Of a DNA stretch of 64,000 bases, positions 1,138-49,872 are shown piece by piece; positions within the stretch are counted from its first letter, which is position 1; each line of letters starts with the position of its first letter. The stretch is from assembly GCA_963708235.1 (NCBI GenBank), contig OY970200.1:847757-911756 (forward strand). The letters run 5' to 3'. This stretch comes from an uncultured Acidimicrobiia bacterium (GTDB lineage Bacteria > Actinomycetota > Acidimicrobiia > Spongiisociales > UBA5794). The notes below the pieces were generated by a model. That model made no database searches, had not been told where the DNA came from, and saw only the letters and a list, made by a program, of their open reading frames with translations. The position numbers and the translations under genes are program-made.

Positions 1138-2256
1138 ATGTCGACCCCGCACCCCACGTCCGAAGCGTCCGATGCGGCAGGTGATCCCGCCGCGGGTGGG
1201 GTGCCCCGATCGTTGAAGCTGGCTTCTGAGATCACATGGCGGACGGCGCTGGTGGTGGCCGGCGCCCTGGCGGTGATCTGGGTCTTCCTCGAGTTGAGCG
1301 TCGTCACCGTCCCCGCCTTCGTGGCGCTTCTGGCGGCGACCGTGCTGTATCCACCCGTCGTGTGGTTGCGGGATCGCGGGTGGCCCCGTCTGCTGGCAAC
1401 CTGGACGGTGCTGCTCGGAGTCGTCGCCCTGGTGGTGGCAGGGGTGGCGCTGCTGGTCCCGGCGTTCCTGGCCGAGACCGAAGATCTCGGAACCCAACTC
1501 GACGAGGGCATTGCCGAGGTGGAGAACTGGCTCGAGACCGGGCCCCTCGGTATCGAGAACGCCGACATCAAGGGCGCCCTGGACAGCGCCGCCGACCAGT
1601 TGATGGATGCGGGCCCCGCCCTGTTCGAGGGGGTCACTGTCGTCGTCGAGGTCCTTGCCGGGATGCTCATCGCCCTGGTGATGGTGTTCTTCTTCATCAA
1701 GGACGGCCCGAAGATCACCGACTGGGCTTCGAAGCACATGCCCGCCACCCGCCGCGACGACTGGCGGCGGGCGTCAGCGGCGGCATGGTCGGCGCTCGGC
1801 GCCTACTTTCGGGGGACGCTGGTGGTCGGGATCGTCAACGGCACCGCCATCGGGATCGGACTGGCCATCCTCGGGGTACCGCTCGCCCTGCCCCTTGCGG
1901 TGATCACGGCCGCCTCGGCGTTCTTCCCCGTGGTAGGTGCGGTGGTGGCCGGAGCGCTCGCCGCCCTGGTGGCGCTGGTCACCGAAGGTCCGGTCGATGC
2001 GCTGATCGTCGTCGGTCTCACCGTCGCCGTGCAGCAGCTCGAAGGCGATGTGCTCAGCCCGGTGATCATGGGACGCGTCCTCAGCCTTCACCCGCTCGTC
2101 ATCCTGGTGGTGCTGACGATCGGCGCCGTCACCGCAGGGATTCTCGGCGCCTTCCTGGCCGTCCCCGTCACCGCCATGGCGATCGCCGCCACGTCGTCCC
2201 TGCGGCAGGCCCGGCTCCGCAACGACCTGCCGGCGCACCCGGCGGAGGGAATCTAG
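1138..2256 (+). CDS. AI-2E family transporter (PerM/YhhT-like, UPF0118) membrane protein.
   Basis: About 372 aa with 7-8 hydrophobic helices. C-terminal motifs [23 protein letters not shown] are typical of AI-2E/PerM permeases. The ATG at 1138 is in frame with the long ORF 79..2256. Confidence 0.7.
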
Positions 2257-2337
2257 CGGGCCACCCGGGGCACACCCGTAGATGTCAAGCAGGGATAGCG
2301 GAGAAAGACCCCTCGCCAGCGGAGGACGCCTTCTTCT

Positions 2338-2580
2338 GGCCCTCCCCTCCTCGGGGGGAGTGTCGGAATATTTCATTGCCACACCGCGGGTTCCCTGGGC
2401 CAGCGAAGCCAATGGAAGCGCATCAACGCGGCGTCCCCTTGTCGGCCCTCCCCTCCTCGGGGGAGTGTCGGAATATGTCATTGCCACACCGCGTGTTCCC
2501 TGGGCCAGTGAGGCCAATAGAAGCGCATTAACGGCGCGTCCCCTTGTCGGCCCTCCCCTCCTCGGGAGGAGGGGTGGCTG
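2338..2580. repeat. Tandem array of about 2.3 copies of a 106-bp GC-rich repeat. Likely non-coding.
   Basis: The unit GGCCCTCCCCTCCTCGGGGGGAGTGTCGGAATAT(T/G)TCATTGCCACACCGCG(G/T)GTTCCCTGGGCCAG(C/T)GA(A/G)GCCAAT(G/A)GAAGCGCAT(C/T)AACG..GTCCCCTTGTC starts at 2338, 2444 and 2549. The third copy is truncated into a hairpin, CCCTCCCCTCCTCGGGAGGAGGGGTGG. Confidence 0.85.
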
Positions 2581-2740
2581 CGGACGCCTCGCGGACGCAG
2601 ACGGGGCGGAGCGCGGCGTCAAGGTCCGCTTCGCCAGCAGCGTCACCGACAGACACGTGACCAGCGCCGCAACCTCCGAACGCCTAGGCCCGCACGCGAC
2701 AAGTCGACCACAGAGGACAACAACCTCGCGCCCCGCCCCA

Positions 2741-2900
2741 CCTCCTCCCAGAACCTCGGAGGCACCCCGCCCCCCGGGGCACGTCGGAATACCTCCGAAT
2801 CAGCCATCTGGGCGCTCCGAAACCCTTGGGCCCCAACGGCCCGAAATCGGCGGACGGAGTAAATCGACAGACCCCCCGGGGCGGGAGGGCCAAGAAAGCG
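2741..2900. repeat. Dispersed copy A of a GC-rich inverted-repeat (MITE/REP-like) element family.
   Basis: Starts CCTCCTCCCAGAACCTCGGAGGCACCCCGCCCCCCGGGGCACGTCGGAATACC. Ends CCCCCCGGGGCGGGAGGGCCAAGAAAGCG. Shares the GTCGGAATA core with the tandem unit and both termini with the copy at 34876-35040. Confidence 0.6.
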
Positions 2901-2949
2901 CCGGCCCTTGCGGTGATCCCTTGTTGGCTTACCCGCTGAGGCATCACAG

Positions 2950-3095
2950 ATGGCGGGGTCCCTCATGGCCAGGGGGATGTCGGAGTACCGCGAAATCGCC
3001 GAGTCCACCTCTCCGAAAGGCCTGTGACGTAGAGGCCCTGCCTTCTCGGGCGTTGAGCGAATCGACACCCCCAGGGCGGTGGGCCAAGAAAGAGC
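2950..3095. repeat. Dispersed copy B of the same repeat family, about 195 bp downstream of copy A.
   Basis: Contains GATGTCGGAGTACCGCGAAATCGCC...CGAATCGACACCCCCAGGGCGGTGGGCCAAGAAAGAG. This aligns with copy A at the GTCGGA(A/G)TACC core and at the GGGCGG.GGGCCAAGAAAG terminus. Confidence 0.6.
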
Positions 3096-3097
3096 AG

Positions 3098-3826
3098 CTA
3101 GCCCAGGTCCAAGATGGGGCGTAGTTCTACACCGCCCCCTGGCACCACCCGGATGTGGGTGGCCATCTCGACCACCGTCTCCGGGCTGCCCCGCAACACG
3201 TAGAAAGCCCGGGCGCTGCGGGTCGCCGGCACACCACCCTCGGAGATCTGAAGGTCTCCGTTGCGAACCCGGATCGTGGCGGCCGACGAGGAGGGATGCA
3301 GCGCACCGCCGGCGACGATGAGATCGGTGGCCGCCTCGGCGAAACGCTGGTGGGCCGCCGGGTCGTCGAGCTGGTGCGTTCCACCACCGACGGCCGGGTC
3401 GTCCGCAGCGGACTCCGGCCCGTGCACCATCGCCAGAAACCGTGCCGCCCCGCGTCCACCGGCGGGCATCGCCATCGACCGATCGAACCACTGCCCGAGG
3501 GGCCGGACCTCGACGGTTCCATAGACCGCCACCGGGATCAGCCGGGCCATGTGAAGGGCGCCCTCCATCGATCCCGCCTCCAGAACGTACACACCGGCCA
3601 GGGCCTCGTCGGTCGCGGCAAACGTGCCCGCCGTCACCTCGACCTCGTCGCCCCGGTGGCGGATGCTCCGAGTCGTCGAGCGCTCCTGCAACGCCACCCC
3701 GGCCATGATCGCTCCAGCCGCCACCTCACCGAAGGCGGCGAACCCGACCATGTCGCGTTCGAAGTCCTCCGTGCCCGGCGTGGGCATCGCCGACTCGTCG
3801 GCAAACAGCAACACCAGAAACTGCAT
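3098..3826 (-). CDS. Protein with two tandem YciI-like (DGPF/Dabb-type) domains.
   Basis: From MQFLVLLFADESAMPTPGTEDFERDM, the first half ends GVYVLEAGSMEGALHMARLIPVAVYGTVEVRPL and the second half ends AFYVLRGSPETVVEMATHIRVVPGGGVELRPI. Both match the YciI-like fold signature. Start is the internal Met (M15 of ORF 3098..3868). Confidence 0.5.
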   Translation of the reverse strand: MQFLVLLFADESAMPTPGTEDFERDMVGFAAFGEVAAGAIMAGVALQERSTTRSIRHRGDEVEVTAGTFAATDEALAGVYVLEAGSMEGALHMARLIPVAVYGTVEVRPLGQWFDRSMAMPAGGRGAARFLAMVHGPESAADDPAVGGGTHQLDDPAAHQRFAEAATDLIVAGGALHPSSSAATIRVRNGDLQISEGGVPATRSARAFYVLRGSPETVVEMATHIRVVPGGGVELRPILDLG

Positions 3827-18363: not shown

Positions 18364-19790
18364 GTTCGTCGCTGACGGCGATGGTCGTCATCGCCGTGAC
18401 GACCATCGCGGTGACCCGCTGGGTTCCCGTCTCGACCGACGAGGCGTGGTTTCTCCAGGTGGTCCGGCGCACCACCAACGGTGACCGCCTCTACCGGGAT
18501 GTGTTCTTCGGGGCGGCTCCCCTGGCGGTCTGGATCGCCGCCGTGGCGGTGCGGTTCACCCGGCCTCAGGTGATCGTGGTGCGGGCCATCGGTCTTGCCT
18601 ACCACCTGGCGATACTGGCCGCTGCAGCTGCGCTGTTCGCCGTCGAAGACGTGCCTGCGCTCCCCACGGTGGCGACGCTCATCGGTGTCGCAGGCCTCGG
18701 CGGCCACCATGCCGCACTGCACAATCACTACGGTCATCTGACCAACATCGGTCTGATCGGGGCGGCAGCAGCGATCCTCGCCGGACGGCCGGTCCTTGCC
18801 GGAGTGGCGCTGGCAGTCGCCGTTGCCGGGCGCTACCCGGTCGGAATCCTGGGTGCGGTGGTGCTCGTTCCGCTGAGTGCGTGGGCACACGGGACAGGTT
18901 TCGCCGTCGATGTCGCCGCGGGGCTGATCGCGGTCGGCGCCCTGGTGGTCGCCGTCGGTTGGGGGGAATGGCGTGCGTTCTACCGGACCGCCGTCGCCAA
19001 CAAGCCCACCTATCTGGCGGTCGCCGGGATCTCGCTGTTGGCCGGGCTGTCGGCGGTGCGCACCCGCGCCGATTCGGTCGCACGGCGGATCGAGGCGGTC
19101 CCGGTACTCGTCGGTTATGCGCTGTTGGTTCCGTGTGGCGGAATCGCAGCGATCGCGGCGGTGTCCGGGTTCTGGTCGGACCGTCCTGACCGGGTGATCG
19201 CCGCCGCACTGGTGGTGTGCGGTATGGCCGTGGTCTATCCGCGGGCGGATCGGGCGCATGTGGTGGCAGCGATGCCCCTCATGGTGGTGGGGGCCGGGCT
19301 GGCGTGTGCCGAACTCTCCGGCCTGGTCTGGTGGACGGCGGCGGCGGGCGCCGGTGCGGTCGCCATGGCCGGCATCGGGGGACGTATGCTGGTCACCAGG
19401 GCAGGGATCTTCCGTCGGGATCTCCCTCGATTGCGCGGACTGCCGGCACCACGGCTGCGCGGGGTGTGGGCCGACGATACCGAGGAAGTGCGTCGCATCG
19501 CCGGGTCAAGGGTCTTCGTGTTGCGAGCCGACGCCGCCTACTTCTACCTGTGCGGAGGTCTGGAGAACCCCACGCCGTACGACTACCCCTTCGCCTCCAC
19601 GTTCGGATCGACCGGTCAGGCGAAGGTGATCGACGCCATTCGGCGGGGTCAAGTGACGTGGGTGTGCGGGTCGATGGTTGCCGGAAGTGCCATGGTTCCG
19701 GAGCAGCTCGCCGGGTTCGTTGCCAAGGAGATGGATCTCGTGGCGTCGACTCCGGTCGGGCCGTTGTCGGGGTTCGGTACCGGGGAGTGA
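18360..19790 (+). CDS. Polytopic membrane protein with a C-terminal soluble domain. Putative GT-C type (lipid-linked donor) glycosyltransferase.
   Basis: 476 aa, about 11 TM helices, then a ~110-aa soluble tail (YFYLCGGLENPTPYDY). Overlaps the upstream stop by 4 nt. Function inferred from architecture and operon context only. Confidence 0.4.
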   Translation: MSSSLTAMVVIAVTTIAVTRWVPVSTDEAWFLQVVRRTTNGDRLYRDVFFGAAPLAVWIAAVAVRFTRPQVIVVRAIGLAYHLAILAAAAALFAVEDVPALPTVATLIGVAGLGGHHAALHNHYGHLTNIGLIGAAAAILAGRPVLAGVALAVAVAGRYPVGILGAVVLVPLSAWAHGTGFAVDVAAGLIAVGALVVAVGWGEWRAFYRTAVANKPTYLAVAGISLLAGLSAVRTRADSVARRIEAVPVLVGYALLVPCGGIAAIAAVSGFWSDRPDRVIAAALVVCGMAVVYPRADRAHVVAAMPLMVVGAGLACAELSGLVWWTAAAGAGAVAMAGIGGRMLVTRAGIFRRDLPRLRGLPAPRLRGVWADDTEEVRRIAGSRVFVLRADAAYFYLCGGLENPTPYDYPFASTFGSTGQAKVIDAIRRGQVTWVCGSMVAGSAMVPEQLAGFVAKEMDLVASTPVGPLSGFGTGE

Positions 19791-22667: not shown

Positions 22668-22692
22668 GGGGGGGGGGGGGGGGGGGGGGGGG
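22668..22692. repeat. 25-nt homopolymeric G tract (poly-C on the minus strand).
   Basis: Uninterrupted G25 read directly from the sequence. Intergenic, 19 nt 3' of the SIR2 gene stop and ~215 nt 3' of the convergent NDH-2 gene. Confidence 0.9.
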
Positions 22693-26349: not shown

Positions 26350-28033
26350 GTGAAACCACCAGTACTCAAGGTGCACCAGCGATGGTCTTCGATGAGGGCA
26401 GCCGGCCGGGACGGGAAGGGACGGCGCTGGATGATCACGCCGCTGGTTCCCTTGCTGCTGGCGCTCGTCGTGGCCTTCGGCCCGGTCGCCGTCGTCGCCC
26501 AGGCGCCACCCGACACCACATGGGGTGATCCGGTCCTCGAAGCGCGGGTCACCTCGCAGATCGACATCGATCGCGCCGTCGATCACCTCCGGCACTTCAC
26601 CGATGTGATCGGTCCCCGGCTCGGCGGCACCCCGGCGGAGAATGCGGCCGCCCAGTACCTGAAGGCCGAGCCTCGAGAGTTATGGCTACGAGGTCACCCT
26701 CCAAGGATTCCCCGCCTCCAACAAGCTGGTGGGAACGATCGCCATCCCCGGCACCCGGGCCCTGCAGAGCGGCATCGCCACCAACGGTCGGATCACGGCG
26801 GGGACCTTCGTCCCCGGGGAGCTGGTCTGGGCCGGCACCGGGATGACCGTCGCCGAGTTCCCGGCGGACACCGCCGGGAAGATCGTCCTGATGGAGAACG
26901 CAACGACAAACGCCAACCGCAACATCCAGGTGGGCAATGCCGCCGACCTCGGCGCCGCCGGCGTCATCCTGTGGCGCACCCAGGCCACCCCCTTCGACCC
27001 GGCGCTGACCACGGTCCGGACGATTCCGGTGCTCGGTGTCGGTGGCGGGCAGGGGACCATCCTCAAGGATCGGATCGATGCCGGTCCGGTGACCGTCTCG
27101 GTCGACACCACGTCGTACACCGGGCTCACCGCCTACAACGTCCACGCCTCGAAGGCACCCACCGTGGGTGACGCCGAGAACGCACCCATCGTCATGGTCA
27201 GCGGTCACTACGACTCGGTGCGAGGTGCTCCCGGTGCCAATGACGACGGGTCGGGCACCATGCTCACCCTTGAACTGGCAAGGGTGTTCAAGGATCTCAA
27301 GTCGGACAAGGAACTGAGGTTCTCGTTCTGGGGTGCCGAGGAACAGGGTCTGATCGGGTCCAACTACTACGTCAACAATGCCCCCCAGGCAGAACTCGAC
27401 CGGTTCGTCGGGGTGTGGCAGAACGACATGGTGGCGACAAGCTGGGAACCGGCCAACCGCTACAACCTGCTCACCGTTCATGGTCTCCACAACACGGTGA
27501 CCCAGGCGGTTGCGGCCGTGGCGCCCCGGCTCGGTCACGAGGCGTTCATCCTCGGCCCCGTCGTACGCGGCGGGAGCGATCATGTGCCCTTCCACAACCG
27601 GGGGATCGCCGCCGCCAATCACAGCTGGCGACCGGCGAGCGGTCCCGGCAACCTGGAACCGGCGTACCACACACCTGAGGACACCATCGAGAACAACCTC
27701 AGCCCGGAGAGGTGGCGCGTCAGCATGGAGCTGATCGGTTCTGCGATCTACACCCAGGCGCAGACCGCCGAGGACGGATTCGACCTGCTCAGCGATGCGG
27801 TCGCCGATCTCGAACTCGACGCCTCACAGTGGAAGCTGGTCAGGTTCCTCGATCGGATCGAGCGGGAAATGGCCGTCGACGACACCGAAGAGGCGTGCCG
27901 TGCCACCGCCGCATACGGCGAAGAGGTGGACCGGCTCGCCGGGCTGCGTCCCGAGCGGGGGCCGCTGGACCCCGAGGTCGCCTACGACCTCCGTGCGTTC
28001 ACGCAGAACCTGTCGCTGACGCTCGGCTGCTGA
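26350..28033 (+). CDS. Secreted M28-family aminopeptidase with a PA domain. Apparent +1 frameshift near nt 26671.
   Basis: Signal peptide MITPLVPLLLALVVAFGPVAVVAQA. Continues in the other frame (ORF 26729..28033) as SYGYEVTLQGF...VGTIAIPGT...GHYDSVRGAPGANDDGSGT...FSFWGAEEQGLIGSNYYV. Removing the extra C in GCCGAG-C-CTCGAG restores AAQYLKAELESYGYEV. Confidence 0.7.
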
Positions 28034-39036: not shown

Positions 39037-40554
39037 ATGCGCCGATCAATCGTGCTGATGGCTGCACTTACCGTGATGGCCGGTCTTGTGCCGGTCTCCG
39101 CTGCTGCGGCGGCCCAGGCCCCCCGTAACTGCGACACCCGCTCGAACGAGAACCCCCGGGCCCTGGTCGAATGTGTCACCGTCGAGGGTGTCCGCGAACA
39201 CCAGGCGGCGTTCCAGGCGATCGCCGACGCCAACAATGGCGAACGTGTTTCAGGATTCGGCGGCTACAACGCCTCGGTCGCCTATGTGGTCCAGAAGCTC
39301 CAGGCAGCCGGCTACAGCCCGGTGGTGCAACCCTTCGATTTCTACGCCTGGCTACCCACCGGTCCGTCGTTCCTCGACAAGACCGCGCCCACTGCGGCGG
39401 CATATGCCGAACACGTCGACTTCGAGTTGTTGACCCAGACCGATGGCGGAGAGGTCACCGCCGCGGTCACCGCCGTCGACCTGCAGCTCGGCATCGGGAA
39501 TACCTCGACGAGTGGTTGTGAGGCTGCAGACTTCAGCGGATTCCCCGCCGGGAACATCGCCCTGATGCAGCGAGGAACCTGCACCTTCCAGATCAAGGCC
39601 GAGAACGCCGCGGCCGCCGGTGCGGTGGGCGCCATCATGATGAACCAGGGCGACGCCGACAACGCCGCACGCAAGGGGCTGGCGGTGGTCACGCTCAGCG
39701 CCGCCTATTCCGGTGGGATTCCGGTGATCTTCACCACGTACGATCGGGGTGTCGAATGGTCGCAGACCGCCGGGTTGCAGCTGCACATGGACGTCAACGT
39801 GTTCCGCGGTGACGCCACCACCTACAACGTCATCGCCGAGACGACCTCCGGCAACCCGGACAATGTCGTGATGGTGGGCGCCCACCTCGATTCGGTGCCC
39901 GGTGGGCCGGGTATCAACGACAACGGTTCGGGTTCGGGAGCGATCCTCGAGGTCGCCGAGAACATGAAGAACGCCAACGTCACCAACAAGGTGCGGTTTG
40001 CCTGGTGGGGTGCGGAGGAGTCGGGACTGGTCGGTTCCAACTACTACGTCGCCAACCTCAGCGAGGCCGACCGGGACAAGATTGCGCTGTACCTGAACTT
40101 CGACATGATCGGTTCTCCCAATCATGTCATCTTCATCTACGACGGTGACGACTCCGACGGTGAGGGCGCCGGTCCGGGCCCGTTCGGTTCGGCACAGATC
40201 GAGGCGCGGTTCGAGAAGTTCTTCGAACGGATGAACGAGCCCTACAAGGGCACCGACTTCTCGGGTCGCTCCGACTACTCGGCATTCATCCTCAACGGCA
40301 TCCCCGCCGGGGGACTGTTCACCGGAGCCGAAGGAATCAAGACACCCGCCGAGGCCGCCATCTGGGGAGGCACCGCCGGCCAGCAGTACGACCCGTGCTA
40401 CCACCTGCCGTGTGACACCTACGACAACAACAACATGCACGCACTGGCGATCAACTCCGGGGCGGTCGCCTATGCCACTGCCTTCTATGCCAACTCCACC
40501 GAGGAGATCAACGGACCGCGGGCAGGTCAGCGGCCACGTCCGTCCCGTCCATGA
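39037..40554 (+). CDS. Secreted M28-family aminopeptidase with a PA domain.
   Basis: Signal peptide MRRSIVLMAALTVMAGLVPVSAAAAAQA, plus HLDSVPGGPGINDNGSGS and FAWWGAEESGLVGSNYYV. Paralogous to 26350..28033. Confidence 0.8.
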   Translation: MRRSIVLMAALTVMAGLVPVSAAAAAQAPRNCDTRSNENPRALVECVTVEGVREHQAAFQAIADANNGERVSGFGGYNASVAYVVQKLQAAGYSPVVQPFDFYAWLPTGPSFLDKTAPTAAAYAEHVDFELLTQTDGGEVTAAVTAVDLQLGIGNTSTSGCEAADFSGFPAGNIALMQRGTCTFQIKAENAAAAGAVGAIMMNQGDADNAARKGLAVVTLSAAYSGGIPVIFTTYDRGVEWSQTAGLQLHMDVNVFRGDATTYNVIAETTSGNPDNVVMVGAHLDSVPGGPGINDNGSGSGAILEVAENMKNANVTNKVRFAWWGAEESGLVGSNYYVANLSEADRDKIALYLNFDMIGSPNHVIFIYDGDDSDGEGAGPGPFGSAQIEARFEKFFERMNEPYKGTDFSGRSDYSAFILNGIPAGGLFTGAEGIKTPAEAAIWGGTAGQQYDPCYHLPCDTYDNNNMHALAINSGAVAYATAFYANSTEEINGPRAGQRPRPSRP

Positions 40555-40595
40555 CGACCTGACCTAGCGGGAGGAGCTGGCCACCGGGCCAGCCA

Positions 40596-40625
40596 GTGTG
40601 GGGGCGGAACGATCCGCCCCCACAC
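40596..40625. terminator. Perfect 12-bp GC-rich hairpin GTGTGGGGGCGG-aacgat-CCGCCCCCACAC.
   Basis: Lies 42 nt downstream of the M28 peptidase stop. Confidence 0.5.
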
Positions 40626-40961
40626 TGCGTTCCGGCGCCCGGGGTGCCGGTGGCGCGCCTGGTTTCGCTGGTGGACGTCGCCCGGAGGCGGGTTCCCGGA
40701 GTCTGGAAGGGACAGGTGACGATCCCGGACGATTTCGACGCCACCAGCGCCGAGATCGAGGCGTTCGGTACGACGTCACCATCGTCTGACCGAGCGCCTC
40801 GGATCGGTGCCTGGTCTCGCGGGTATTTGTGGACGGCTGTGTTGAATGTTTCGCGTTCTGCGCTCCCGATCGGGTTTCTGTCACATCCCGTCGCGACGAT
40901 CCGATGAGATGGATGGAAGGACCCAATCCTTTCTCCCGGAGAGCGATGGGAGCTGGAAGTA

Positions 40962-41808
40962 GTGAACACGATGGGTGACGACAAGGAACTTCCTCAGGTA
41001 GATGGTGCGACGGGGTCGACTCCGTTGTGGAAACGGAAATGGGTGGTGGTGGCAGCGGTTGTGGTCGGGCTGATTGCGGTTGCAGGTGGGGGCGACGACG
41101 AGACGGATTCGGCAGCGACCAGCACCACGGAATCGGGTGACGTTGTCGCAGCGGCCGACCTGGCTCCCGGCGTGGAGTCGGCCACCACGACGACCGCAGC
41201 GAGCGACCCGACCACCACGGTGCCGGCGACCACGGTCCCCTCCACCACGACCCCGCCTCCCACGACCACGGTGCCGGTTACCACGACGTCGCCGCCGACG
41301 ACGACCACGGCAGTGCCGCTACCCGAAGCGGAGTTTCGTGACGGTACGCACCTTGTCGGCGCCGACATCGAACCCGGGACGTACCAGGCATCGGGTATCG
41401 GCGGCTTCGGGTGCTATTGGGAGCGGCTGGCGGGACTCGGAGGTGACTTCGATGACATCATCGCCAACGACAACGCCGACAACCAGGCCGTGGTCGAAAT
41501 CGCAACGGGTGACGAGGCTTTCAGCGCCTCGGGATGCGGAGATTGGTTTCCATTGACCGCTCTCGAGGTTCCGTTGGAGGTGTTCTCTACCGGCACCTGG
41601 GCGGTCGGTTCCCACATCGTTGCTGGACGGTACCGCTCGGCCGGTGATGGTGACTTCTGCTACTGGGAACGCTTGTCCGGGTTCTCCGGCGAGTTCACCG
41701 AACATCATTGCCAACGACAACGCCTCGGGTCAGGCCATCGTCGACATCTCGGCAGGGGATATTGCCTTCAGCTCGAGCGGGTGCGGCGAATGGACGCTGG
41801 TGGACTGA
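40962..41808 (+). CDS. Membrane-anchored protein with a Thr/Pro-rich linker and two copies of a Cys-containing ~75-aa repeat domain. Apparent +1 frameshift near nt 41705.
   Basis: N-terminal TM segment WVVVAAVVVGLIAVAGG, then a TTTVPATTVPSTTTPPPTTT linker. Repeat 1 is GFGCYWERLAGLGGDFDDIIANDNADNQAVVEIATGDEAFSASGCGDWF. Repeat 2 (FCYWERLSGFSGEFT + NIIANDNASGQAIVDISAGDIAFSSSGCGEWT) is split across frames by one extra base in GAAC-ATC. Confidence 0.5.
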
Positions 41809-48545: not shown

Positions 48546-49872
48546 GGAGTCCTCCCTCGGTGACGGCGGGAAGGCTGGCGGAGATGGCGGTGCCGGCACC
48601 CAACTCCGATTCGATGTCGAGGTCGCCCGACAACCCCTCGACGCGTTGGCGCATCGCGGTCAGCCCGAACCCGCGGTCGACCGGCGCCCCGTTGTCCTGT
48701 GCCCCGTTGTGCGGTGCCCCGTTGTCCGGTGCCCCGCTGTGCGGTGCCCTGTTGTCCGGGGCATCGTGGGCGACCACATCGAAGCCGCTTCCGTCGTCTC
48801 GAACATCGAGCGACACCACGTCGTCCATGTAGGAGAGGGTTACCCCCACCCGGGTCGCCCCGGCATGTTTCGACACATTGGCGAGGGCCTCCTGCGCCAC
48901 GCGCAGCAGCGTCACCTCGACCTCGGGATGGAGCCGCTCGGCCGTGCCGGTCGTCGCCATCTGCACCGTCACTCCGTTGCGCTCGGACCAGCGTGCCGCC
49001 ACCTCGGCGATGGCGTCGGGGAGCCGGCTGTCCTCCAAGGGCGCCGGGATCACCGCCTGGACCGAACGCCGCGCCTCCGAGAGGCTTTCGCGGGCCAGTG
49101 CGGCGGCATGATCCAAGCGCCGGCGGAGCTCGACGGGATCGTCGATGGTGTGTTGCGCCGCCTCGAGTTGGGTGACCACCCCGGTCAGCCCCTGCGCCAG
49201 GGTGTCGTGGATCTCGCGGGCCATCCGCTGCCGCTCGTCGAGGATTCCGGTCTCACGGGCGTGCGCCACCAGCAGCGCCTGGAGTTCGGCGTTCTCGCTC
49301 AGGGCCGCCTCCAAATCGGCAACGGTGCGCTGCCGTTCGTCGGCCACTGCCCGGAAACGTCCCTCCGAGGACACCCCGAACCCGATCCCGACCGTCTGCA
49401 CCGCCACCACGATGACGTAGATGGTGATGCTTTCCCTGGTGGGGTCGGGCAAACCGAGTATCAGCCCGTTGATCACCAGCGAAGTGACGAAGATGGCGCC
49501 GACCGCCCGTCGCAGAGGCTTCAGGTATCCGGCGTGGAAGAACCCGGTCAGTGCCACCAGGAAGAACAGCGGCGCCATGGTCATCAATGCAACGGTGAGG
49601 GCCAGTATCCCGACGATATAGACGACGAGGCGGCGCTGGGAGTGGCGGGTGGCCGGGGTCAGCGGGGAGCCCATGGTTGCCGCCACCCAGGCGAACGCCA
49701 CGGCGGTGACCCCCAGCACCCGGGCGGTCTCCGGCCACGGGCGTGGGTCGAGCGTCAGGGTGATGATCAGGCTGACCGCCAGCATCACGTACGGGATGGC
49801 ATCGACCACGGTGTCGAATCCGCGACCGGGCGCTGATTGCTCCGACTCCGGGCGCTCTCGACCAACGACCAT
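48538..49872 (-). CDS. Sensor histidine kinase (HisKA_3 / NarX-DesK type).
   Basis: 4-5 TM helices, then REIHDTLAQGLT (H-box) and HATPase motifs (DDGSGF, GFGLTAM). Alternative start at 49899. Confidence 0.75.
   Translation of the reverse strand: MVVGRERPESEQSAPGRGFDTVVDAIPYVMLAVSLIITLTLDPRPWPETARVLGVTAVAFAWVAATMGSPLTPATRHSQRRLVVYIVGILALTVALMTMAPLFFLVALTGFFHAGYLKPLRRAVGAIFVTSLVINGLILGLPDPTRESITIYVIVVAVQTVGIGFGVSSEGRFRAVADERQRTVADLEAALSENAELQALLVAHARETGILDERQRMAREIHDTLAQGLTGVVTQLEAAQHTIDDPVELRRRLDHAAALARESLSEARRSVQAVIPAPLEDSRLPDAIAEVAARWSERNGVTVQMATTGTAERLHPEVEVTLLRVAQEALANVSKHAGATRVGVTLSYMDDVVSLDVRDDGSGFDVVAHDAPDNRAPHSGAPDNGAPHNGAQDNGAPVDRGFGLTAMRQRVEGLSGDLDIESELGAGTAISASLPAVTEGGLRG

Follow-up and report, generated by a model that had tools for sequence, protein, structure and literature searches.

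Lineage-specific families of intergenic repeats that resemble miniature inverted-repeat transposable elements (MITEs) or repetitive extragenic palindromic (REP) sequences are well known in bacteria, as are mobile elements that home to palindromes, and the locus described here leaves that general picture unchanged. The REP superfamilies are defined by a conserved tetranucleotide tag, GTAG or CGTC, that marks one end of their palindromes (PMC3733652). Insertion sequences (ISs) that insert at the apex or centre of extragenic REP palindromes have also been documented (PMC1525189; PMC12288879). In this work we describe a related arrangement in a 64,000-nucleotide stretch of contig OY970200.1, from an uncultured Acidimicrobiia bacterium, which we call the window. 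Between two convergent genes of the window lies a pile-up of small non-coding repeats that is private to the lineage. It contains a repeat of about 250 bp, the host element, and a 92-bp miniature element, the core, which sits at the apex of one of the host's terminal palindromes. This is ordinary bacterial junk or selfish DNA, and a tidy example of it.

Nesting is visible at the junctions of the first core (core B, positions 2780-2871 on the plus strand, CACGTCGGAATACCTCCG...CGGAGTAAATCGACAGA), which was delimited by nhmmer and by comparison of its putative terminal inverted repeats (TIRs). The same 10 bp, CCCCCCGGGG, are read from the sequence on both sides of it, at 2770-2779 and at 2872-2881, and the left copy forms the centre of a palindrome that we call H2. 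In context, ...GAGGCACCCCG CCCCCCGGGG is followed by the core, CACGTCGGAATAC...GTAAATCGACAGA, and then by CCCCCCGGGG CGGGAGGGCCAAGAAAG; the reconstructed palindrome reads CCCCGCCCC-CC-GGGGCGGGG. The ends of the core run GTCGGAATAC...AATCGAC, the right end also being of a GTATTCCGAC type. At 92 bp, with no GC signal at third codon positions and with only spurious open reading frames (ORFs) overlapping it, core B is short and non-coding, as a MITE (under about 600 bp) should be.

The host element that surrounds core B occupies positions 2543-2898 (plus strand) and is about 254 bp long without the nested core. Its ends, CCTTGTCGGCCCTCCCC... and ...GGGAGGGCCAAGAAAG, are imperfect TIRs of about 85 nt. 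With the core removed, the reverse-complemented left end aligns to the right end over about 85 nt with a score of 25, against 10.1±1.75 in shuffled sequences (0 of 1000 shuffles reach it), so we treat 2543-2898 as one host element with long imperfect TIRs. Weak reverse matches reported by nhmmer, at 2628-2544 and 34978-34889, also fall on host termini. Each terminal repeat holds a palindrome, and the ends take the form (C)CTTKYY...GGCCC and GGGCC...AAGAAAG; the termini may also be written GGCCCTCCCC...AAGAAAG, with CTTTCTTGGCCCTCCCC...GGGGAGGGCCAAGAAAG as the paired ends. A preliminary description of this locus had quoted a different pair of terminal inverted repeats, whose members turn out not to be mutual partners: CCTCCTCCCAGAACCTCGGAGGCA is the 3′ part of an internal module, Y (described below), and the right-hand tail pairs with CTTTCTTGGCCCTCCCC, which lies at the opposite end of the host.

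The modules of the host element follow one another from left to right. The palindrome of the left terminus, H1 (2549-2578, plus strand; GGCCCTCCCCTCCTC GGG AGGAGGGGTGGC), was found by an inverted-repeat search and in the fold; CCTTGTC stands before it, and after it comes a hairpin that we call X (2578-2600, plus strand; CTGCGGACGC CTC GCGGACGCAG). Next comes the Y module of about 105 nt, which together with the left arm of H2 (CCCCGCCCC) covers 2666-2779 (plus strand; nhmmer E-value 1e-24), Y proper being 2666-2769. The right terminus of the host, at 2882-2898 (plus strand), consists of the right arm of H2 and the tail (CGGGAGGGCCAAGAAAG), with an exact tail match at 2883-2898. The 16-mer tail GGGAGGGCCAAGAAAG occurs exactly at 2883 (plus strand) and at 34887 (minus strand), and with two mismatches at 3077; allowing up to three mismatches gives seven matches, where 0.46 are expected.

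A second, diverged core (core C) lies at 2976-3067 (plus strand; GATGTCGGAGTACC...GAATCGACA) and was found by nhmmer. Its alignment to core B scores 17, against 7.7±1.3 in shuffles (0 of 500 reach it), and the larger elements around the two cores, at 2773-2901 and 2969-3095, are 66% identical over 131 nt (E-value 9.5e-6 against the window). The preliminary description had treated these as two elements of about 150 bp. Their similarity is real, but they are not units; they are composites, in which a 92-bp core is nested in the terminal palindrome of a long-TIR element. Beside core C stand a palindrome right arm and a tail (3068-3092, plus strand; CCCCCAGGGCGGTGGGCCAAGAAAG), which end 5 nt before the stop codon of the neighbouring gene, and the CCCCCAGGGCGGGG variant of that palindrome recurs in a metagenome contig, L140, discussed below.

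The gap that holds these repeats is 841 bp long (2257-3097) and full of repeat modules. According to Pfam, its left border is the stop codon of an AI-2E-family transporter gene (2254-2256, plus strand) and its right border that of a YCII-like (YCII-domain) gene (3098-3100, minus strand). A 280-aa ORF, 2282-3124, runs across the gap. Third-position GC bias is strong in the genes on both sides and absent over 2260-3100, as it is over 34740-35220, where a further copy lies; the lack of such a signal across the gap indicates that the ORF is a read-through of repeats. The only homologues of this ORF among 5.8 billion protein clusters are other repeat-derived ORFs of the same genome, and the earlier judgement that it merely translates the repeats is therefore upheld.

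These spurious translations proved useful, since the genome-wide copies were read from translated repeat ORFs (P0009-P0020) and not from DNA. The query ORF returned itself and P0009-P0011 from the protein clusters, a second query with P0011 returned P0012-P0017, and HMMER, run exhaustively with the minus-strand reading against 1.84 billion representatives, added P0018-P0020. The 3,740,380-bp contig that carries the genes of the window encodes all twelve, and no other genome gave a match. Translated repeat arrays thus account for at least 13 ‘hypothetical proteins’ on this contig (P0008-P0020; 193-457 aa), which have no homologues elsewhere. P0009-P0020 are mosaics of the same modules in shifting frames, and the order X, Y, tail of the host element recurs in P0010, P0011 and P0012. 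At least 24 Y modules are found in nine forward-frame ORFs and seven more in antisense-frame ORFs, together with seven B-type cores; as a lower bound for Y modules we take about 26 from the ORF translations. The arrays of P0011 and P0012 are at least 1.3-1.4 kb long, and the many separate loci have different unique flanks.

The copies also record how cores sit in their targets. Near-identical copies of core B are present at seven other loci, five of them inverted relative to Y, and of nine cores in total two are forward relative to Y, five are reversed and one lies in a solo palindrome. The forward cores are those of the window and P0018; P0011, P0012, P0013, P0014 and P0016 have the core in the opposite orientation, with the same Y and tail on either side (e.g. 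PPG-SVDLLRPPISGRWG...GIPTL-PPGRGG, which matches the minus strand of the window at 2928-2764). Empty paralogous sites exist as well. P0010 and P0011 (residues 358-385) read ...TSEAPRPPGRGGP... (APRPPGRGGP), corresponding to GCACCCCGCCCCCCGGGGCGGGGAGGGCC, which is the undivided palindrome without a core, and undivided palindromes occur in P0010, P0011, P0015 and the metagenome contigs L140 and L141. A core is present in P0012 and absent from the matching place of the near-identical P0015 array.

The sequence of the duplicated flank varies among these sites. It is CCCCCCGGGG in the window, P0011, P0013 and P0016; CCCCAGGG in P0014, whose palindrome is a CCCCCAGGG variant that is also found in L140; and CCTCGGGG in P0017, where the core lies inside an H1-type palindrome. 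In P0018, S-P-T-G is encoded on either side of the core. The duplicated bases thus follow the target and not the element, which is the footprint expected of staggered-cut transposition. Direct duplications of constant length (8-10 bp; 6 bp for core C), dispersed copies, both orientations and empty sites are what one looks for in a MITE, and all are found for the core. For comparison, the duplications made by IS4-family transposases are about 10 bp, or about one helical turn (PMC2266710).

Sequences from outside this genome give an orthologous empty site. The host lineage appears to be poorly sampled: the YCII protein has only seven relatives among the 5.8 billion protein clusters, the closest of which (70% identity) is encoded on a European Nucleotide Archive (ENA) contig, L138, and a Joint Genome Institute (JGI) contig, L139. 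The gene order (carbonic anhydrase, glutaminase, YCII, AI-2E) is conserved on both, with nucleotide identity of about 86%, and the AI-2E protein is 91% identical between the window and the relative. In L138 and L139 the same convergent stop codons are 25 bp apart, against 841 bp in the window, which means that the whole repeat cluster is absent at the orthologous site.

The family does occur in the community of the relative. When JGI metagenomes were scanned for the Y block, two copies came up, L140 and L141, in the same metagenome as L139; both are core-less, and one is upstream of a SpoU/TrmH-like gene while the other is in a divergent promoter region. The two contigs are likely to come from the same organism as L139. 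The presence of the family in this community, at other sites, fits gain and loss by mobility. A genuine family had been expected to have further copies, and these two DNA copies join the twelve repeat-derived ORFs of the home contig in that respect; with the duplications, orientations and empty sites set out above, the initial diagnosis of a GC-rich inverted-repeat family of MITE or REP type is well supported.

Other collections gave little. A first metagenome pattern (an 18-mer of Y, a gap of 95-125 nt and the tail) had no match, the pattern having left out core-less copies. A plasmid collection searched with blastn in distant mode gave no match, and viral contigs gave only chance matches to a 14-mer and none to the specific patterns. 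The tail pattern GGGCGGN{1,3}GGGCCAAGAAAGMG gave 17 single matches in genome contigs of unrelated phyla, none extending past the motif, and we attribute these to chance. A Logan contig that ends in core B was considered as a repeat-induced assembly break; this idea was dropped when its other end was seen to break inside the single-copy glutaminase gene.

Taken together, we consider it probable that the locus is a nested pair: a palindromic host element with long TIRs, spread in arrays that resemble bacterial interspersed mosaic elements (BIMEs), and a 92-bp MITE that targets the palindrome apex and is moved in trans by what is probably a DDE-type transposase. Repetition, nesting, duplicated flanks, both orientations and empty sites, paralogous as well as orthologous, are direct observations. 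What we infer is the transposition chemistry, an enzyme that acts in trans and any effect on the neighbouring genes. The first tier would be the host element of about 250 bp, with imperfect TIRs of about 85 nt, a GC-rich palindrome (arm GGCCCTCCCCKCCYC) in each terminus and an AAGAAAG end, around an interior formed by the well conserved Y module of about 105 nt. It would spread in intergenic DNA and build head-to-tail arrays in which the palindrome arms alternate in orientation, as in BIMEs. The second tier would be the core, with imperfect TIRs of about 15 nt, which would insert in either orientation at the palindrome apex and duplicate the central 8-10 bp; a duplication of that length would be the mark of a trans-acting DDE-type transposase that makes staggered cuts about one helical turn apart. 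Both tiers are presumably mobilised by proteins encoded elsewhere in the genome.

Several points weigh against this account. For the host element itself we could not delimit a target-site duplication, and no transposase, integrase or REP-associated tyrosine transposase (RAYT) was found among the window ORFs compared with Pfam (34) and with NCBIfam (10). The TIRs of the core are weak: in core B GTCGGAATACCTCCG is inverted against GTCGATTTAC-TCCG at about 12 of 15 positions, and core C shares only GTCG and a few further bases. Core C has a flanking repeat of just 6 bp (CCAGGG), and nhmmer finds no Y to its left. All of the duplications except the window's own are back-read from the amino acids of spurious ORFs, and the flanks are palindromic and composed of G and C only, which makes short duplications likelier by chance or slippage. 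Lastly, the way in which the ORFs were found biases the sample of cores towards those beside Y or tail modules.

A stricter version is one that we entertain only tentatively. Here the core would be a hyper-parasite that lands exclusively on the apical 8-10 bp of the palindromes of a second, older repeat family, and selection may maintain the Y module of that family as a functional unit that binds protein or acts as RNA, so that it would be more than selfish DNA. The Y module is 82-98% identical to the locus D copy described below and to L140 and L141. Positions 60-115 of L140 and 2723-2778 of the window are 98% identical over 56 nt, against about 86% for neighbouring genes, and this difference leaves room for functional constraint on Y. 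The two Y copies inside the window are only 82% alike, so that Y is better conserved between genomes than within one.

It is unlikely, in our view, that no transposition took place, and that tandem duplication, slippage and gene conversion between palindromes built the arrays while homologous or site-specific recombination across the palindromic flanks flipped the cores. Local tandem duplication, which belongs to the favoured account as well, does seem to have acted at the left of the gap, where an array of A units (2328-2571, plus strand) carries the host left terminus (CCTTSTY GGCCCTCCCCTCCTC GGG) three times, alternating with two A segments of about 77 nt. Tandem Repeats Finder reports this array as 2338-2571, with a period of 105, 2.2 copies and 92% matches, close to the tandem 106-bp unit noted earlier; a repeat search pairs 2333-2437 with 2438-2542 (period 105-106 bp), the motif GGCCCTCCCCTCCTC starts at 2338, 2444 and 2549, and each A segment opens with GTCGGAATAT. 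A-like segments stand before the same host terminus in P0009 and P0013. The array is most likely a local tandem duplication of the host left terminus and an adjoining segment that has the same GTCGGAATA end motif. This plain head-to-tail duplication, the long arrays of near-identical units in P0011, P0012 and P0015, and the self-complementarity of the core flanks CCCCCCGGGG, which makes them inverted as well as direct repeats, are all consistent with recombination. Against it stand the copies at many loci with different unique flanks and those elsewhere in a second species; core-free versions of the same palindrome exist, and the change of the duplicated bases with the target variant is unexplained by inversion.

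The motif GTCGGARTAY, noted earlier, does occur four times, all of them in the gap, against 0.22 occurrences expected. The A units have only a 9-mer, GTCGGAATA, in common with cores B and C, and beyond it they are not homologous to them (alignment score 9 against 7.6 in shuffles, which 108 of 500 reach).

The nested pair also has to be weighed against the proposal that the modules are functional cis-elements or small RNAs (e.g. terminators, mRNA-stabilizing 3′ structures, protein-binding sites or multi-copy small RNA genes) that selection has kept, with their repetition secondary. The conservation of the Y block is one argument for this. Another is the X hairpin, whose counterpart at 34931-34953 retains the stem by way of two compensatory pair changes, as read from the sequences. 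A third is where the GC palindromes stand: here they come directly behind stop codons, and in L140 and L141 they precede start codons by 43-121 nt. Yet we find this proposal quite unlikely. In Rfam 15 no part of the window matches at the gathering score, and nothing credible appears in either repeat locus at E-values up to 5; a search for tRNA and tmRNA genes found none, and a scan for promoter and terminator consensus sequences found nothing above shuffles. Folding of single pieces, a check in the spirit of RNAfold that had been suggested earlier, does give stable structures, but their energies are only slightly lower than those of shuffles, mostly within about 2 standard deviations (about 1.5-2.7 for most pieces). 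RNAalifold finds no covariation in the three Y elements (covariance term +2.22; one compensatory pair in 38). Furthermore, the elements point either way with respect to flanking genes and also form multi-kb arrays, and the site is dispensable in the relative.

A strict REP family in REPIN (REP doublet forming hairpins) or BIME arrangements, mobilized as single-stranded hairpins by a RAYT (an IS200/IS605-like Y1 transposase) encoded elsewhere, is very unlikely. The palindromes, at 30-35 bp, are GC-rich and extragenic and stand in inverted pairs and in arrays of alternating orientation, much like the REP, BIME and REPIN properties given in PMC2817692, PMC3116915 and PMC3333891. H1 and H2 are imperfect extragenic palindromes in the 20-40 bp range of REP and BIME palindromes, with inverted pairs and arrays in P0011, P0012 and P0015. 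However, H1 and H2 have neither a GTAG nor a CGTC tag beside them in the gap, in the second repeat locus of the window, in L140 or in L141, and the unit, with its 105-nt non-palindromic module, is far longer than a REP doublet. Y1 transposition does not make duplications of 8-10 bp such as those of the core, and Y1_Tnp has no match among the ORFs of the window in Pfam or NCBIfam. The same duplications rule out palindrome-associated elements (PATEs) derived from IS200/IS605 and an IS110-type mechanism for the core, since such elements lack TIRs and duplicate nothing or at most 2-3 bp of the target, while integron attC sites, CRISPR, retrons and bridge-RNA genes were rejected for want of an adjacent protein gene and a matching architecture.

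The second repeat locus of the window, locus D, contains modules of the host element. An X-type terminus at 34887-34978 (plus strand) consists of CTTTCTTGGCCCTCCCCGCCC, a palindrome and then an X hairpin. Compared with the host left end, both reverse-complemented, it scores 31 against 9.6 in shuffles (0 of 1000 reach it), and 34927-34977 is a direct match to 2568-2618 at 78%. An inverted Y module follows at 34997-35100 (minus strand; nhmmer E-value 1e-25), in the space between a 1440-aa Laminin_G_3 gene (stop at 34736) and a molybdopterin oxidoreductase gene (start at 35217); within the module, 35080-35003 matches 2690-2771 in inverted orientation at 82% (E-value 2.5e-13). In locus D, a Y module and an X-type terminus are joined. 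The preliminary description had recognized this distant copy, which is real, and had ended it at 35040; it runs to about 35100. No further copies were found within the 64-kb window by whole-window self-comparison and profile searches. A separate hairpin with a 14-bp stem (GGTCACCTCAATCC / GGACTGAGGTGACC, 5-nt loop) lies at 34798-34830, 60 nt past the stop of the Laminin_G_3 gene; it stands apart from the repeats and is probably a U-less terminator belonging to the Laminin_G_3 gene.

Otherwise the neighbourhood is one of ordinary housekeeping genes, including those for glutaminase, AbgT, M17 and M28 peptidases, HrpA and a molybdate-type ABC transporter (Pfam and NCBIfam). In a tblastn comparison with plasmids, HrpA was 52% identical to Nonomuraea and 50% to enterobacteria. 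The AI-2E gene that borders the gap is part of a single uninterrupted 725-aa frame (79-2256), in which an amino-acid-kinase domain occupies residues 19-280 and an AI-2E transporter domain residues 391-706. This is either a fusion or two genes without a stop between them; contig L138 of the relative ends before that point.

Some further features of the window deserve mention in their own right. At 22668-22692, 25 G stand in a row (poly-C when read on the minus strand), between the stop of a 780-aa SIR2_2-domain gene (22712, minus strand) and the start of a small minus-strand ORF (about 22649). The run could make a possible defence operon phase-variable, or it could be a homopolymer artefact of long-read sequencing. 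Near-perfect palindromes at 40594-40627 (34 nt, 94%; about 40 nt past the stop of an M28 peptidase gene) and 18375-18412 (38 nt, 84%) show no sequence relationship to the repeat family. Within a histidine-kinase/response-regulator gene region, 48681-48759 consists of 5.3 copies of a 15-nt unit (30-nt super-period, 91%). A direct repeat of about 190 nt (41355-41546 and 41604-41793, 64%) lies just upstream of, or overlaps, the start of an hrpA-like gene, and the 63% nucleotide similarity between 27189-27400 and 39866-40077 reflects two paralogous genes for PA-domain M28 peptidases.

These results are of practical importance for the annotation of this genome. The gap and its 280-aa ORF are repeat DNA and not a gene, and the same is true of at least 13 bogus ORFs in all, including at least 12 other hypothetical proteins. 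Arrays of this kind break short-read assemblies and are likely rearrangement hot-spots. The locus is also a clean case of a miniature transposon at the apex of another family's palindromes, with filled, empty and inverted sites within one genome, and, given a scan of the whole genome, it could help to identify the responsible transposase and its target rule.

How does this family compare with those already described? It resembles the BIME and REP clusters and the REPINs of Proteobacteria. These too are extragenic, GC-rich, imperfect palindromes that occur as inverted pairs and in mosaic arrays, where both their orientation and the spacers alternate. They prefer gaps between convergent genes, belong to lineage-specific families and serve as landing pads for other mobile elements. 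Unlike them, the family described here has no GTAG or CGTC tag and no known RAYT. Its unit is about 250 bp, with TIRs of about 85 nt and a 105-nt non-palindromic module, in place of a 20-40-bp palindrome or a doublet of about 100 bp, and its copies so far number in the tens, whereas theirs run to hundreds (typically more than 100 per genome).

The core has counterparts in IS1397, ISKpn1, ISPpu9/ISPpu10 and IS621, which likewise insert into the apex or centre of the extragenic palindromes of another repeat family. Here, however, the invader is a 92-bp non-coding element and not a full IS, and it leaves duplications of 8-10 bp, where those of IS3-type elements are 3-4 bp and IS110-type elements leave essentially none. 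With bacterial MITEs, such as Correia/NEMIS, RUP, ERIC/IRU and MIC231 (from IS231), the core shares its short length, lack of coding capacity and target-site duplication (about 10 bp in the IS4 family), as well as many intergenic copies in both orientations and the coexistence of filled and empty sites. IS231, for its part, prefers a symmetric GGG(N)5CCC target. The core differs in having no sequence similarity to these MITEs (no match among plasmids or viral contigs), in TIRs that are weaker, if present, and in a target that, as far as seen, is only the palindromes of a second family. Finally, the A array recalls the mycobacterial interspersed repetitive units and variable-number tandem repeats (MIRU/VNTR) in being a 105-bp head-to-tail intergenic repeat in 2.2 copies, although its unit is the terminus of a dispersed element together with an adjoining segment. 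In summary, the family is a new, lineage-restricted member of the familiar MITE-like and REP/BIME-like intergenic repeats, with palindrome-targeted nesting.

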